DNA of 64,000 bases from Candidatus Zambryskiibacteriota bacterium (GCA_963840745.1 CAWJAC010000004.1:4027-68026); one strand, 5' to 3'; counted from the first letter of the stretch, positions 23,852 to 53,572 are shown. Numbers and translations: made by a program. The notes: generated by a model not told the origin, from the sequence alone.

Positions 23852-23855
23852 ATTG

Positions 23856-24282
23856 TGGAGAAGGGGGCATTGAAGCCCCATGCAAACAAGTTTTGATAAT
23901 GCTTCTACGCGATGTATTTAATTTTATTCTGTCTTTCAACAGAGATTTGATATTTGTTCTATAAAATTAACAAAACAAACAAATATCTAGTTTCTTAGTT
24001 TCAAATATGGAGCGAAACACTTTCTATATTCTAAGCCCGATTTATTACAATCATTCTTTCCTCCGGACGAAAGAAAGATGACCGTCGCTTAGGAGAGAAA
24101 CTTAAAATTAAGCTCTGACGTAAGCGAAAGCGAAATCGTTGACTCCAAAATATGGAGAAACAACAGATTTGGCTTGTGCAAGAATGTTTTTAGCATTTAT
24201 GCGTTGGAAACTTTTTAAGAGTTTTTCCAGCTCTACCGCGCGCATTGTCAAAGAATCTCATTTGTCTAAACCTGTCATCCCC
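23856..24282 (-). ncRNA. ssrA: tmRNA (SsrA)
   Basis: On the minus strand, directly downstream of smpB. 5' GGGGAUGACAGGUUUAGAC..., 3' ...GGGGC-UUCAAU-GCCCC-CUUCUCC-A. Acceptor GGGGAUG/CUUCUCC has the G3:U70 alanine identity pair. There is an internal ORF ...NDFAFAYVRA-UAA whose stop lies in a hairpin. Confidence 0.7.
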
Positions 24283-27287: not shown

Positions 27288-27363
27288 TGGTGCGCGCTGA
27301 GGGATTTGAACCCCCGACCAATCCGGTATAAGCGGAGTGCTCTACCAACTGAGCTAAGCGCGC
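27288..27363 (-). tRNA. tRNA-Ile (anticodon UAU), CCA encoded
   Basis: GCGCGCU-UA-GCUC-AGUUGGUA-GAGC-A-CUCCG-CUUAUAC-CGGAU-UGGUC-GGGGG-UUCAAAU-CCCUC-AGCGCGC-A-CCA. Manual cloverleaf with a perfect 7-bp acceptor stem. The body resembles minor tRNA-Ile. Confidence 0.85.
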
Positions 27364-31232: not shown

Positions 31233-31323
31233 GGCGGAAGGGGAGGGATTCGAACCCTCGGTGCCGTTTAAAGGGCACACATCTTTAGCAAAGATGCACG
31301 ATAGACCACTCCGACACCCTTCC
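31232..31323 (-). tRNA. tRNA-Ser (anticodon GCU), long variable arm, CCA encoded
   Basis: GGAAGGG...CAUCU-UUGCUAA-AGAUG-[long variable arm UGUGCCCUUUAAACGGCAC]-GAGGG-UUCGAAU-CCCUC-CCCUUCC-G-CCA. Confidence 0.9.
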
Positions 31324-36719: not shown

Positions 36720-37325
36720 ATGGTTCATCCAAAAGAAGAGAGAACTTTGGTAGTTATAAAGCCTGATGGAGTTCAAAGGACTTTGATAGGGGAGATTATA
36801 GGAAGGTTTGAAAAACTGGGATTAAAATTGGTGGGTATGAAAATGCTTATACCGACAGCCGAGTTTGTTGAAAAACATTACACTCTTGATCCGGAATGGC
36901 GCAGGATAACGGGAGAGAAAACAATTAAAAGTTATATAAGCAAAGGACAAAAACCACCATCTGAAGATCCACTCGAAATAACGGCAAAAATTTTGGAAGC
37001 ATTAAAGAAATATTTAACTTCTGGACCAGTGGTGGCTATGGTTTGGCAGGGGGCACACTCTACAGAACTGGTCAGGAAAATTGTCGGCGGCACAGAGCCG
37101 AGAAGTTCGGATGTCGGAACAATAAGAGGTGATTATGTGTTGGATTCATACGTTATGGCCGATACTGATGGCCGAGCGGTCAGGAATTTGATCCACGCTT
37201 CTGGTTCTAGCAAAGAATCTGAGGCTGAAATAAAACATTGGTTTAAGAAAGAAGAACTTATAAATTACAGATTAGTTCAAGAACAGATTTTGTATGATGT
37301 AAACTTGGATGGGATATTGGAATAG
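36720..37325 (+). CDS. ndk: nucleoside diphosphate kinase (long form, 201 aa)
   Basis: ERTLVVIKPDGVQR..., NLIHASGS active-site His context. About 40 aa of internal insertion and a C-terminal extension relative to ~140-aa NDKs. Confidence 0.85.
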   Translation: MVHPKEERTLVVIKPDGVQRTLIGEIIGRFEKLGLKLVGMKMLIPTAEFVEKHYTLDPEWRRITGEKTIKSYISKGQKPPSEDPLEITAKILEALKKYLTSGPVVAMVWQGAHSTELVRKIVGGTEPRSSDVGTIRGDYVLDSYVMADTDGRAVRNLIHASGSSKESEAEIKHWFKKEELINYRLVQEQILYDVNLDGILE

Positions 37326-37338
37326 GGGTATAATGGCC

Positions 37339-37497
37339 GTAGGGTTGCCTGCAATATTTTCTAACTGCACATATTCAGGGAGGCTAACTTTTTTCAACGT
37401 AAAGTTGAAATCGAAGCCACCCACCTAATATTTTTCAATTAGGGAATTATTTCAGGCGATCCTACAAAAAATGCTTTGCTTCGCAAAGTATTTTTTG
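37339..37497 (+). ncRNA. candidate structured RNA (cis-regulatory leader or sRNA), unclassified
   Basis: TTGGAT-18-TATAAT (-10 at 37329-37334). A 13-bp helix pairs 37339-37351 with 37453-37465 (two G:U, plus-strand specific). Internal hairpins at 37393-37409 and 37424-37443. Helix 37378-37384/37416-37422. Terminator at 37466-37497. Confidence 0.45.
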
Positions 37498-37507
37498 TTA
37501 AAATTAT

Positions 37508-37912
37508 TTGATGCTGAAGAAACCGCTTTTTTTGGAAATGCTGATTCTTTTTGCTGTTGTGGCCGGGCTTCATATCGTTGCCAACATTTACCATCTTTAC
37601 TGGTCCATTTATGAATTTGACAGCGTGGTGCATTTTTTTGCCGGTGCCGCCATCTCATTATTTTTCTTGTGGTTTTACTTTTTCTCTGACTTTTTTAGTC
37701 CTCCCAAAAGAAACCTGACAAATTTTTTGCTCGTTTCTCTTATTGGTGCAATGTTTGTGGGTTTTTCGTGGGAAATTTATGAACTCATTTTTAGACAGAC
37801 GATGGTTTCCAAGATAGATTATCCTTATGACACCATGATGGATTTAATAATGGATCTTTTGGGCGCTGTAGCGGCTTGTTTTTATGGATATTTAAAACAA
37901 CATGAATCCTAA
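37508..37912 (+). CDS. hypothetical small membrane protein (4 TM)
   Basis: 134 aa with four hydrophobic helices and a conserved-looking FSWEIYELIF...DTMMDLIMDLLGA segment. Confidence 0.7.
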   Translation: MMLKKPLFLEMLILFAVVAGLHIVANIYHLYWSIYEFDSVVHFFAGAAISLFFLWFYFFSDFFSPPKRNLTNFLLVSLIGAMFVGFSWEIYELIFRQTMVSKIDYPYDTMMDLIMDLLGAVAACFYGYLKQHES

Positions 37913-38429
37913 ATTAATTTTTTATGGCGGTGTCGGTTCTACTACCGGAGCTAATATAATGCTTGAATATGGAAATAAAAAAATTCTTGTTGATTGCGGA
38001 CTTTTGCAGGGGGCAAAACAGATAGAGGAAAGAAATTTTGAGCCTTTTAAATACGATCCGAAAAGCATTGATTTTCTTTTGATTACTCACGCCCACATGG
38101 ATCATATAGGCAAAGTACCCAAATTGGTGAGAGATGGTTTTAAGGGTAAAATAATTTCTACCAGTGAGACCATGGAACTTGCCAGACCCATGTTGGAAGA
38201 TGCATTTAAAGTAATGAAGGTAAAGCATCCGGACAAAGTACTTTTTGATGAAGAGGATATAGCAAAAGCTCTGTCTCTTTGGGAAGGTAGAAATTATGAA
38301 GAAAAAGTTGAATTATTTTCCGGCTGTTTTCTAGAAATGCAAGATGCTGGACATATTTTAGGTTCGGCCATATGCAATGTGGAAATAACTCTCCCCCAAA
38401 AAACATTAAAAATCTGCCTTCACTGGTGA
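37902..38429 (+). CDS. MBL-fold beta-CASP ribonuclease (COG1236-like), N-terminal part (frame changes at A-run 38408-38412)
   Basis: LVDCGLLQG, THAHMDHIGKVP, and a GHILGSA motif. The ORF ends in nonsense (...TLKICLHW*) immediately after an A5 run. Confidence 0.8.
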   Translation: MNPKLIFYGGVGSTTGANIMLEYGNKKILVDCGLLQGAKQIEERNFEPFKYDPKSIDFLLITHAHMDHIGKVPKLVRDGFKGKIISTSETMELARPMLEDAFKVMKVKHPDKVLFDEEDIAKALSLWEGRNYEEKVELFSGCFLEMQDAGHILGSAICNVEITLPQKTLKICLHW

Positions 38430-38454
38430 TCTGGGTAATTCACCATCGCCTCTT

Positions 38455-39306
38455 TTGCCGGACACCGAATTTCCAAAAGACGCGGATTACATTGTAATGG
38501 AGAGCGTTTATGGAGACAGAAATCACGAAAGCAAGACAGAAAGAAGGGAAAAACTAAAAGAATATATTTTAGAAGGCATAAAAAAAGACGGAACCATTGT
38601 TATTCCGTCATTTTCCATAGAAAGAACCCAAGTTTTGCTTTATGAAATAAACAATATGGTTGAAAATAAAGAAATCCCTCAGGTGCCCGTATTTTTAGAT
38701 TCTCCTTTGGCTCTGAAAGTAACCGATATTTATAAAAAATATGAAAAAGATTTTAAAGAATCGGTGAAAGAAGAAATAAAAAGAGGTGATGACATATTTG
38801 ATTTTCCAGGGTTGAAAATTGTAAAAACAGCGCAAGAATCGGCAGAGATTGAAAATATAAAAGGGACAAAAATAATACTCTCAGGCTCTGGCATGTCGGA
38901 GGGCGGCAGGATAGTCAATCACGAAGCCTATTATTTGCCAGACCCGGGTGCCACTATTATTTTAGTGGGCTATCAGGCAGTGGGCACTTTAGGAAGGGCT
39001 TTGCAGGATGGGGTTAAGGAAATAATTCCTCCCTTGCCCCCCTCTTATGATAAGAGGGGGGTTGGGGGGCGTTATGACAGTAAGCAGAAAATTAAAGTGA
39101 AGGCCAAAATAGAAATGATAGAAGGTTACTCGTCTCACAAAGACTCGGAGCATCTTTTGGAGTTTGTCGAGAAAGTTGCTCCCCGTCATGTTTTTGTCAT
39201 TATGGGAGAACCCAAATCCTCCCTTTTCCTTATCCAGCGCATCCGCGATTATCTTGATATAGACGCTATTTATCCGGAAGAAAATAAAGAATATGAATTA
39301 GTTTAA
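38455..39306 (+). CDS. MBL-fold beta-CASP ribonuclease, C-terminal part
   Basis: This frame is open from 38410 and reads KSAFTGDLGNSPSPLLPDTEFP...DYIVMESVYGDRNH...SSHKDSEHLLEFV...VFVIMGEP (beta-CASP motifs). Confidence 0.8.
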   Translation: MPDTEFPKDADYIVMESVYGDRNHESKTERREKLKEYILEGIKKDGTIVIPSFSIERTQVLLYEINNMVENKEIPQVPVFLDSPLALKVTDIYKKYEKDFKESVKEEIKRGDDIFDFPGLKIVKTAQESAEIENIKGTKIILSGSGMSEGGRIVNHEAYYLPDPGATIILVGYQAVGTLGRALQDGVKEIIPPLPPSYDKRGVGGRYDSKQKIKVKAKIEMIEGYSSHKDSEHLLEFVEKVAPRHVFVIMGEPKSSLFLIQRIRDYLDIDAIYPEENKEYELV

Positions 39307-39307
39307 T

Positions 39308-40837
39308 TTATCTCGCAAATTCTATTGTTCTAGATTCTCTAATCACTACCACACGGATCTCACCCGGATATTTGAGTTCGTTTTCAATGCGAATGGCGAT
39401 GTCGCGAGCCATATCTTTGGCCTCAACGTCGCTAACTTGAGATGGGGTGACAAATATACGAAGCTCTCGGCCGGCCTGCAAGGCATAAGCTTTTTCTACA
39501 CCTGTTATGGAAGTGGCAATCGCTTCGAGATCGCCAAGTCTCTTCAAATAATTTTCCACACTGTCTCTTCTTGCTCCTGGTCTGGCGCCTGATATAGCAT
39601 CGGCCGATTGGACGATGTAAGATTCCAAAGTGGAGTAAGGATATTCGCCATGGTGCGATTCCATAGCCCTGATTATTTTTTCATCAGCTCCGAATTTCTG
39701 TAAAATTCTACGGCCTATATCCACATGGGTGCCGGCAATCTCGTGATCTACTGCTTTGCCTATATCATGCAGAAGTGCTCCGGCTTTAGCGACGGCTACG
39801 TTAGCGCCTATTTCAGTGGCCAACATTCCGGCAATATGGGACATTTCTATTGAATGTTGCAAAACATTTTGGCCGTAAGAAGTGCGGAAATGAAGTCTGC
39901 CCAAAATTGAAACAATCCTGGGGTCAAGGTTAAAGACGCCGCATTCATAAGCAGCTGCCTCGCCCTTTTCTTTAATTATTTTATTTATTTCCTGTTTGGC
40001 TTTTTCCACCATCTCCTCGATTTTGGCTGGCTGTATTCTACCGTCGGCAATCAAGTTTTCTAGAGCCACTCTGGCCACTTGTCTCCTGACGGAATCATAG
40101 GAAGATATGGTAATAAGTCCTGGAGTATCATCAACAATTATTTCTACCCCGGAAACTCTTTCAAAAGCTTTTATATTTCTGCCTTCTTTGCCTATAATTT
40201 TGCCTTTTATTTCGTCAGAAGGAATGGTGACAGTAGTAGAAAATACTTCGGAAGATACCGAATTTGCCAGTCGCTGTATTGAAGTGGTTAATATTTCCTT
40301 AGCTCGGCCCTCAATTTTTTCGCTGCCGCTGTTTTCCAATTTTTGCATTCTGACAGCTATGTCTTCCTCATGTTTCCTTTCTATTTCCCGTAGCAAGACA
40401 TTCTTGGCCTCCTCTTCCGTTAAGTTGGAGACTTTCTGTAATTCATCAAATTTTTGTTTTTCTAGGGCTTCCACCTTTTCCTTGATAGTTTTCACTTCAG
40501 AGATTTTTTCTTTAACTTGTTCGATTTCTTTATCTATATCAAGCTGTCTTTTATCTAAGAATTCATCTTTTTTTATGAGGCGATCTTCAGTCTTTTTAAT
40601 TTTTTCCTCCTTTTCTTTAAATTCTGCTCGGGTTTCTTTCAGAGTCTCTTCGGCTTTATTTTGTGCTTCCTCAGTAATTTTCTTGGCCTCCTCCCTCGCG
40701 TGAAGCTCCATCTGCTTGATACGGAGTTCTACCGAACCGCGTTGGCCGAGCGATATGATCCAACGCAGAAAATAACCAAAACCGACACCCACCAAAGCCG
40801 CTAAGCCCGCGAAGAGCACCGCTAATTTTAATGACAT
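39308..40837 (-). CDS. rny: ribonuclease Y
   Basis: N-terminal TM helix, long Lys/Glu coiled coil, KH domain (GKIIGKEGRNIKAFE), HD domain (HSIEMSHIAG...LLHDIGKA). Confidence 0.95.
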   Translation of the reverse strand: MSLKLAVLFAGLAALVGVGFGYFLRWIISLGQRGSVELRIKQMELHAREEAKKITEEAQNKAEETLKETRAEFKEKEEKIKKTEDRLIKKDEFLDKRQLDIDKEIEQVKEKISEVKTIKEKVEALEKQKFDELQKVSNLTEEEAKNVLLREIERKHEEDIAVRMQKLENSGSEKIEGRAKEILTTSIQRLANSVSSEVFSTTVTIPSDEIKGKIIGKEGRNIKAFERVSGVEIIVDDTPGLITISSYDSVRRQVARVALENLIADGRIQPAKIEEMVEKAKQEINKIIKEKGEAAAYECGVFNLDPRIVSILGRLHFRTSYGQNVLQHSIEMSHIAGMLATEIGANVAVAKAGALLHDIGKAVDHEIAGTHVDIGRRILQKFGADEKIIRAMESHHGEYPYSTLESYIVQSADAISGARPGARRDSVENYLKRLGDLEAIATSITGVEKAYALQAGRELRIFVTPSQVSDVEAKDMARDIAIRIENELKYPGEIRVVVIRESRTIEFAR

Positions 40838-53497: not shown

Positions 53498-53572
53498 GGT
53501 GACTATAGTGTAGCGGTAACACGACAGCTTGTGGAGCTGTTTTCGCCGGTTCGAATCCGGCTAGTCACCCCA
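53498..53572 (+). tRNA. tRNA-His (anticodon GUG) with encoded G-1 and CCA
   Basis: G(-1)-GUGACUA-UA-GUGU-AGCGGUA-ACAC-G-ACAGC-UUGUGGA-GCUGU-UUUC-GCCGG-UUCGAAU-CCGGC-UAGUCAC-C-CCA. Confidence 0.9.

Follow-up and report, generated by a model that had tools for sequence, protein, structure and literature searches.

We analyzed a 64,000-nt stretch of DNA from a Candidatus Zambryskiibacteriota bacterium (GCA_963840745.1, CAWJAC010000004.1:4027-68026; the whole stretch is referred to here as the window) and found on its plus strand, behind ndk, a conserved RNA gene whose product is probably a divergent, miniature 6S (SsrS-type) RNA of a Parcubacteria/Zambryskibacteria-like bacterium of the Candidate Phyla Radiation (CPR), about one-third shorter than usual. 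6S RNA mimics an open promoter and sequesters RNA polymerase; it is usually 160-200 nt long, its helical arms are long, and the apical one contains a '-35-like' region. The RNA described here did not formally pass the Rfam 6S model, but it shares with 6S RNA the core motif, the architecture and, in one homologue, a sub-threshold match, and it was therefore read as a divergent, shortened 6S lineage.

The RNA gene and its homologues

An initial annotation had described this region as an unclassified structured leader or small RNA (sRNA) composed of a promoter, a 13-position closing helix with two G·U pairs, three inner elements and a terminator. We re-read this layout directly from the window sequence, and every coordinate was confirmed. 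The parts are as follows.

37305-37334, plus strand: promoter of the RNA gene (TTGGAT at 37305-37310, spacer of 18 nt, TATAAT at 37329-37334)
37339-37465, plus strand: 6S-like RNA core of 127 nt, bounded by the outermost bases of the closing helix (supported by the fold z-score, the family model and 54 homologues)
37339-37351, plus strand: 5' strand of the closing stem P1, GUAGGGUUGCCUG, pairing over 13 positions with 37453-37465
37353-37364, plus strand: 5' strand of P2, AAUAUUUUCUAA, the A/U- and G·U-rich 'downstream duplex' beside the bubble (from the rod of minimum free energy, MFE)
37365-37377, plus strand: 5' strand of the central bubble, CUGCACAUAUUCA, 13 nt, A/U-rich, a putative mimic of the template strand
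37378-37384, plus strand: 5' strand of the upstream helix P3, GGG-A-GGC, which fits the Rfam 6S consensus 'GGGagccc'
37393-37409, plus strand: apical hairpin (UUCAAC at 37393-37398, GUAAA loop, GUUGAA at 37404-37409), the short form of a variable apical arm
37416-37422, plus strand: 3' strand of P3, GCC-A-CCC, which with the following ACCU reads GCCACCCACCU against gggcaCCCACCU in the Rfam 6S consensus
37423-37438, plus strand: 3' strand of the central bubble, ACCUAAUAUUUUUCAA, 16 nt, beginning with ACCU, a putative mimic of the non-template strand and -10 region
37424-37443, plus strand: alternative hairpin P4 in the 3' bubble strand (CCUAAU at 37424-37429, AUUAGG at 37438-37443), which excludes distal P2
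37439-37451, plus strand: 3' strand of P2, UUAGGGAA, bulged U37447, then UAUU (from the MFE rod and the family columns)
37453-37465, plus strand: 3' strand of P1, CAGGCGAUCCUAC, partner of 37339-37351
37466-37497, plus strand: intrinsic terminator (A-run, GCUUUGC-UUC-GCAAAG stem-loop, U-run; from sequence and folding)
37496-37513, plus strand: promoter and start of the downstream gene, outside the RNA (extended -10 element TGTTAAAAT at 37496-37504, ATG at 37511-37513)

The -35-like hexamer of the RNA promoter lies inside the last codons of ndk. The primary transcript would run from ~37341 to ~37497, giving ~156 nt with the terminator hairpin. The two G·U pairs of P1 are G37344·U37460 and U37346·G37458, and because of them P1 is specific to the plus strand. 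The A·A mismatch of P3 is formed by A37381 and A37419, and UUAGG (37439-37443), the first five bases of the P2 3' strand, is common to P2 and to P4. The element occurs as a single copy within the window.

Upstream regions of homologues of the downstream protein, whose comparison the initial annotation had proposed, contained the RNA. With the protein in its originally annotated 134-aa form as the query and one genome per species, we obtained seven loci from Zambryskibacteria, Paceibacterota and metagenome-assembled genomes of the 'Patescibacteria group'; the same RNA lay just upstream of the protein gene in all seven. A metagenome scan with the pattern CACCCACCTA-N5-20-TAGGGMAWTAT returned 64 loci, 61 of which were true homologues, while L016, L017 and L053 were chance matches. 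The resulting set (alignment A3) comprises 54 distinct RNA sequences from Parcubacteria/Zambryskibacteria-type genomes and metagenomes, namely 47 metagenome members and the seven protein-anchored loci. A covariance model, R1, built from 49 sequences (alignment A1), gave exactly one strong match per locus, with full-length matches of 64-152 bits; on the window it scored 132.2 bits (E = 3e-27) on the plus strand and 21.2 bits on the minus strand. The core measures 122-174 nt in the family, with a median of 141 nt.

Resemblance to 6S RNA

The consensus of the Rfam 6S family, RF00013, was obtained by scanning E. coli ssrS (L072:284-466). It consists of a closing stem, a downstream helix uGAgCC/GGuUCa, a 16-nt A/U-rich 5' bubble strand and a helix 'GGG a gcccuc'/'gagggc a CCC' followed by ACCU, the core structure string being <<<-<<<<<< / >>>>>>->>>. 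The window reads CA-GGG-A-GGC ... GCC-A-CCC-ACCU in the same topology, and P3 has the same layout of 3 bp, a 1x1 a/a loop and further pairs. Aligned in this way, the A·A mismatch of P3, which is present in 54/54 members, is the conserved 1x1 loop of 6S RNA, and the GGG-A-GGC/GCC-A-CCC helix plus ACCU makes up the best-conserved part of the 6S family. In homologues such as L007, L022, L041, L057 and L063 the sequence is GGGAGCC ... GGGCACCCACCU, identical to the RF00013 consensus over 7 + 12 nt. ACCU is upper-case (conserved) in that consensus, and E. coli 6S RNA has ACCUUG; ACCUA occurs in all 54 members, which is partly forced by the search pattern and holds also in the seven protein-anchored loci.

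The rod fold, with a closing stem, a large central bubble and an apical stem, is likewise as in 6S RNA, as judged from the MFE structure and from compensatory changes in P1, P3 and the apical stem. Among the 54 members the 5' bubble strand is 13-18 nt long (mode 14), 74% A+U and variable in sequence, and the 3' bubble strand is 12-17 nt long (mode 16); these sizes fit the expectation for an open-complex mimic. One homologue, L063, which belongs to the family by R1 (85 bits, E = 2e-16), matched RF00013 with 23.6 bits (E = 0.0026, or ~0.01 after allowing for five E-value scans). This was its only significant match and covered model positions 1-187 on the correct strand; the L063 core was aligned at high posterior probability, and its P2 fell on the 6S downstream helix. 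The label 'unclassified' can thus be replaced, given the fit of the core to the 6S consensus and the L063 match.

Folding and covariation

The region 37336-37500 of the plus strand had an MFE of -61.5 kcal/mol, compared with -30.65 +/- 3.87 kcal/mol in 200 shuffled sequences (z = -7.97), none of which folded as well. The minus strand of the element also folded (z = -6.0). The single-sequence MFE structure was a rod in which AAUAUUUUCUAA (37353-37364) pairs with UUAGGGAA-U-UAUU (37439-37451), and this rod was preferred to the CCUAAU/AUUAGG hairpin, which cannot coexist with it. The hairpin proposed in the initial annotation covaries but is not the favored fold of the single sequence.

In A3, 95.1% of cells were paired and 19/35 pairs had changes on both sides; the covariation score was 0.474, compared with 0.194 after shuffling (0.474 was reached in 0/500 shuffles) and at most 0.114 in controls in which the partners were slid by 1-3 columns, and these A3 values lean towards the rod model, to which the alignment was fitted. 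RNAalifold on an independent MAFFT alignment recovered P1, GGGAGGC/GCCACCC, the apical stem and CCUAA/UUAGG, with 16/28 pairs compensated. Pair-keeping changes on both sides were found in 10 of the 12 modelled pairs of P1 (A3), and changes on both sides in all five modelled pairs of the apical hairpin. The P3 pairs beyond the A·A mismatch also covary (G-C 39, U-A 8, C-G 4, U-G 2, A-U 1). Compensatory changes in the homologues were thus seen in all the inner helices named in the initial annotation (GGGAGGC/GCCACCC, the apical hairpin and CCUAAU/AUUAGG) as well as in its closing helix.

P2 and P4 share a 3' strand. The P2 column pairs are 94-100% canonical in the family, and G·U pairs are common in both P1 and P2. 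The distal P2 pair is A-U in 31 members, G-C in 12, G-U in 6, C-G in 1 and unpaired in 4, the G-C cases coming from one probable clade. The fifth pair of P4 is A-U in 38 members, G-C in 15 and C-G in 1, and is therefore canonical in 54/54. Column 169 of A3 has column 157 as its partner in P4 and column 32 as its partner in the rod; the same 3' column keeps pairing in both, and therefore one 3' segment appears to have two conserved partners. The second conserved pairing, that is, the rod partner of the P4 3' strand, is suggestive and not proven. Predicted ensemble probabilities of the two states were nearly balanced across the family (means 0.42 and 0.36), and the predicted P4 probability exceeded 0.5 in 51/54 members when the 5' strand was blocked.

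The apical arm beyond P3 measures 29-35 nt in the short forms, compared with 49-82 nt in the long ones, and beyond the bubble the short forms have only ~7 bp, a loop and ~7 bp. Long-form arms contain a box C/D-like GAUGA...CUGA module, found by motif search in 22/54 members and absent from the window copy and all short forms. It appears as CGAUGAG ... UUCUGAC (tandem G·A, U·U, G-C) in L002, L003, L004, L006, L018, L022, L026, L031, L034, L040, L055, L056, L059, L061, L063 and L069, and variants read GUGAAU ... UCUAAU. Although GAUGA/CUGA supplies the tandem G·A motif, a canonical K-turn was not claimed because the flanking loop is 2x2 or 3x3 and not the canonical 3-nt bulge.

Transcription unit and downstream gene

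In 51/54 members a -10-type hexamer, in most cases TATAAT, ends 4-7 nt (mode 6) ahead of the first P1 pair, and the remaining three carry TATACT or GATAAT. A hairpin with a U-run follows the closing helix within ~10 nt in 53/54 members, with unrelated stem sequences. These sequence signals mark the RNA as a discrete conserved sRNA gene that has a promoter and a terminator of its own, and not as a leader.

The downstream gene, which encodes a small membrane protein, has signals of its own. The extended -10 element TGTTAAAAT lies 6 nt before ATG 37511 in the window, and of 46 distinct upstream regions of homologues, 36 have a -10 hexamer (the TGTTAAAAT or the TGTTATAAT extended form) 4-9 nt (mode 6) ahead of the start codon; most of the other ten have mispredicted start codons. 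A Shine-Dalgarno (SD)-like motif before the membrane-protein gene was found in none of the 46. Since the extended -10 element stands between the terminator and ATG, the membrane-protein mRNA looks leaderless and separately promoted. Hence the sRNA half of the initial description, 'structured leader or sRNA', was borne out by the RNA's own promoter and terminator, whereas the leader half was not. The gene had been placed at TTG 37508 (134 aa); ATG 37511 is the more likely start, and the 133-aa product from it is identical to the database protein P0001.

The RNA also occurs apart from this protein. In L020 and L045 it is kept with a different downstream gene, encoding a protein of ~1100-1175 aa with an N-terminal hydrophobic segment that stands in place of the small membrane protein and the RNase that usually follows. 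In nearly all loci the block map-ndk-RNA-membrane protein-beta-CASP RNase is syntenic, and because the whole block is syntenic, the adjacency of the RNA and the membrane-protein gene is weak evidence of a functional link.

Several side observations concern this gene and its surroundings. The membrane protein (37511-37912) and all 84 relatives carry the precomputed label PF09997, and a Pfam scan gave only sub-threshold Ost5. In L002, L021, L046, L066 and L068 (also in L029, L036 and L044), the stretch from the terminator of the RNA to the -10 element of the membrane-protein gene contains an additional conserved segment of ~35 nt, GTCCCGCRTAGCTTTAGCGAAGNGGGAT, directly before TGTTAAAAT; this segment is optional, can form a hairpin and may represent an operator or a small mobile element. 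Among 51 open reading frames of at least 150 aa in the window, an SD-like motif was found in 4, and many had a TATAAT-like hexamer within ~15 nt of the first ATG, which suggests that leaderless or SD-independent initiation is widespread in this organism.

Assessment of the 6S assignment and alternative explanations

A number of observations weigh against the assignment to 6S RNA. Rfam scans of the window copy gave no RF00013 match at the gathering threshold or at E <= 10, the long members L055 and L057 had no 6S match in E-value scans, and the 23.6 bits of L063 lie below the RF00013 gathering threshold of 46.4 bits. R1 did not match E. coli ssrS, but this miss says little either way, since the E. 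coli RNA itself deviates from the consensus, with GAA/UUC in place of GGG/CCC. The family, at 122-174 nt, is shorter than the usual 160-200 nt, and a '-35-like' contact is probably out of reach of the apical arm in the short forms. The reported hallmark of 6S product RNA is GG at position 4/5 or 5/6 with an adenine just upstream of the start (PMC8414754), and no conserved CC that would template such a GG was found in the 5' strand of the family, where most members read GCUUGGAUAUUUUCUAA. In 139 kb of related contigs, the extent covered with regard to a second 6S gene, an Rfam scan gave tmRNA and tRNAs only. In the 47 metagenome members, CACCCACCUA...UAGGG is invariant partly because the search pattern requires it, and the seven protein-anchored loci, all of which pass, are the only unbiased test of it. 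The fitting of A3 to the rod and the single probable clade behind the G-C form of the distal rod pair belong here too. As for the length, a short natural 6S RNA is plausible because engineered truncated 6S-1 RNAs of 78-82 nt, with only the bubble and short arms, still bind polymerase, make product RNA and are released in vitro (PMC8876501). GAUAUUUUCUAAC resembles the E. coli sequence GAUAUUUCAUACC near the product-RNA start, but this likeness was not relied on, the sequence being A/U-rich and the register uncertain.

We consider it unlikely, though the most serious of the alternatives, that the RNA is a lineage-specific trans-acting or protein-binding sRNA, such as a scaffold for a K-turn protein or a base-pairing regulator, whose 6S core was reached by convergence or distant inheritance and which has no action on polymerase. 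A strongly conserved stand-alone gene with no Rfam family at the gathering score, a length below that of known 6S RNAs and the missing product-RNA 'GG' hallmark (PMC8414754) would suit such an RNA, as would the box C/D-like module in the long apical arms of 22/54 members. However, that module is optional and missing from the window copy and all short forms, RF00013 is the sole significant match for L063, and the resemblance to 6S RNA extends over sequence, the 1x1 A·A position, the adjacent ACCU, the bubble sizes and a single topology.

A cis-acting leader or riboswitch, in which ligand-dependent termination at 37466-37497 would control the 133-aa membrane protein, corresponds to the 'aptamer plus expression platform' of the initial annotation and is very unlikely. 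The RNA does stand directly upstream of a membrane-protein homologue in nearly all loci, even at 22-40% protein identity, a terminator follows the closing helix, and two helices are mutually exclusive. Yet the membrane-protein gene has its own extended -10 element ~6 nt before the ATG, as do 36/46 regions (the rest being mostly mispredicted starts), the RNA precedes a ~1100-aa protein in L020 and L045, and adjacency within a syntenic block is little informative. The 13-bp closing helix is far stabler than riboswitch switching helices, the alternative helices leave the terminator uninvolved, and the 5' junction varies in sequence and length (13-18 nt), unlike a ligand pocket. The terminator is complete in itself, and a crude test revealed no conserved antiterminator; in this test at least 80% of terminator pairs were kept in 39/54 members and the inspected failures stemmed from the terminator-boundary rule. 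Rfam scans of the window element at the gathering threshold and at E <= 10 returned only noise, with no ykkC-yxkD or other riboswitch, signal recognition particle (SRP) RNA, RNase P or Y RNA; the initial annotation had already set ykkC aside. Still less probable, to the point of being negligible, is an inverted repeat acting at the DNA level without RNA function, either a transposon relic or miniature inverted-repeat transposable element or a long bidirectional ndk terminator. The folding of the minus strand (z = -6.0) and the symmetric terminator (A-run, stem, U-run) would agree with it, but the element is single copy in the window and in every locus, its frequent P1 and P2 G·U pairs would be A·C on the other strand, R1 scores 132 bits on the plus and 21 bits on the minus strand, the promoter stands at a fixed distance in all members, and compensatory changes extend across deep divergence.

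Further candidates were rejected. SRP (4.5S) RNA had been suggested by the rod shape and a GAAGC-like string, but the RNA has no GNRA tetraloop or symmetric-loop motif, no Rfam match and a variable apex. A retron msr/msd, a type I toxin-antitoxin system or a transposon guide RNA did not agree with the conserved synteny, the single copy and the lack of a reverse transcriptase or transposase.

Proposed mechanism

The mechanism that would follow from the 6S assignment is drawn from established 6S biology (PMC8876501, PMC8414754). The rod would act as an open-promoter mimic in the active-site cleft of the housekeeping sigma-RNA polymerase holoenzyme, and the RNA would sequester the holoenzyme when nutrients are scarce. 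P3 and the apical arm would stand for upstream DNA and P2 and P1 for downstream DNA, with ACCUAAU... standing for the non-template -10 region and the A/U-rich 5' bubble strand for the template. On return of nucleoside triphosphates, the polymerase would use the 5' bubble strand and P2 as template for a short product RNA, which may invade and unwind P2. UUAGG (37439-37443) would thereby be freed to pair with CCUAA (37424-37428) as P4, and the refolded RNA would then leave the polymerase, as in E. coli-type 6S RNAs. It is also conceivable, though quite unlikely, that the RNA is a 6S descendant with a new mode of action: a minimal polymerase-binder that has no '-35' arm, switches between rod and P4 in the absence of product RNA and, in the long forms, recruits a K-turn-binding protein, or else an RNA functionally coupled to the neighboring membrane-protein and beta-CASP RNase genes.

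Comparison with known RNAs

E. coli 6S (SsrS) RNA and the RNA described here are both products of stand-alone genes for an abundant-type sRNA, with a rod made of a closing stem, a central bubble and an apical stem. With RF00013 the RNA shares the GGG/CCC helix, the 1x1 A/A loop, the G-C-rich pairs, the 3' ACCU and the A/U-rich 5' bubble. In E. coli 6S RNA the 3'-bubble hairpin CCUUGAACC/GGUUCAAGG borrows the 3' strand of the downstream helix, as the predicted CCUAAU/AUUAGG hairpin would here (PMC8876501). In contrast, E. coli 6S RNA is 183 nt long compared with 127 nt in the window, the downstream helix here is A/U- and G·U-rich and not uGAgCC/GGuUCa, and the RNA ends here are apparently set by promoter and terminator and not by processing. 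The RNA also differs from known 6S RNAs in lying below the Rfam threshold and in having no conserved CC to template the product-RNA 'GG'.

In B. subtilis 6S-1 RNA and the 6S RNAs of lactic acid bacteria, a 3'-bubble hairpin of 5-7 bp is present or predicted in the free RNA (PMC8876501, PMC8414754), and the 6S gene lies at a strongly syntenic locus within a clade (PMC8414754). The counterparts here are P4 and the ndk/membrane-protein locus. Unlike the present family, those RNAs are ~190 nt long and detected by covariance models. The release of 6S-1 RNA uses a 'central bubble collapse helix'; the release proposed here involves P4. The truncated 6S-1 RNAs have a layout comparable to that of the short-arm natural RNA, whereas they are laboratory constructs with ~10-fold lower affinity and the RNA here is the product of a natural conserved gene.

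Ms1 RNA of Actinobacteria is a 6S-related rod; it binds RNA polymerase, and 6S models fail to detect it (PMC9130861). It differs in being ~300 nt long and in binding the core enzyme, and Rfam gave no match to Ms1 here; the 6S core motif argues for true 6S ancestry. To the ykkC/guanidine-I riboswitch the only likeness is the GUAGGGUU-like 5' start, which here lies in a freely covarying helix and not in a conserved motif, and there was no Rfam match to it at any threshold.

Neighboring genes

An ndk gene of a different, shorter type, 43-46% identical, lies upstream of the RNA in L003, L011/L029, L036, L046 and L061; the versions of L003 and L061 end in KRFGVDK. Between the new ndk and the TATAAT of the RNA gene, L003 still has a remnant of the 'long' ndk, namely its final 16 codons (94% identical); the old 3' end may have been retained since it holds the upstream part of the RNA promoter.

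The beta-CASP/metallo-beta-lactamase RNase gene (RNase J/CPSF-like, 37902-39306) is split in the window into two frames of 175 aa and 283 aa. The break lies near 38393-38419, beside the run CCCCCAAAAAA at 38394-38404, and the homologues are single open reading frames of 454-485 aa; the split reflects either a pseudogene with a frameshift or an assembly error in the homopolymer. The RNA gene is two genes away from this RNase and next to RNase Y (39308-40837, minus strand). RNase J1 of B. subtilis has a key role in 6S processing and decay (PMC10578484). The nearness of the RNA gene to RNase genes may be a coincidence within the syntenic block.

In the window, the only Rfam matches at the gathering level were transfer-messenger RNA (tmRNA, 74.7 bits) and three tRNAs, at 23853-24282, 27291-27363 and 31235-31323 on the minus strand and 53499-53569 on the plus strand. 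In L041, tmRNA lies ~5.4 kb downstream of the RNA.

Implications

6S RNA is, to our knowledge, described as nearly universal in bacteria. Parcubacteria have genomes of roughly 1 Mb and are host-dependent. Among the results listed, our search of the literature library returned no paper relevantly linking 6S RNA with CPR/Patescibacteria, the sole co-mention being unrelated, and the Rfam 6S model misses this RNA family at its gathering threshold. If the assignment is true, global control of RNA polymerase by a promoter-mimicking RNA would be retained even in Parcubacteria. The family would then be a natural 'minimal 6S' RNA of 122-174 nt, parallel to the engineered truncations and attractive for questions of structure and of essential parts. 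The alignment and model would let annotators label a recurrent 'orphan' intergenic RNA of CPR genomes and avoid calling it a riboswitch. If the RNA proves to be 6S-derived but differently acting, it would represent a new mode of action for a 6S-type RNA.

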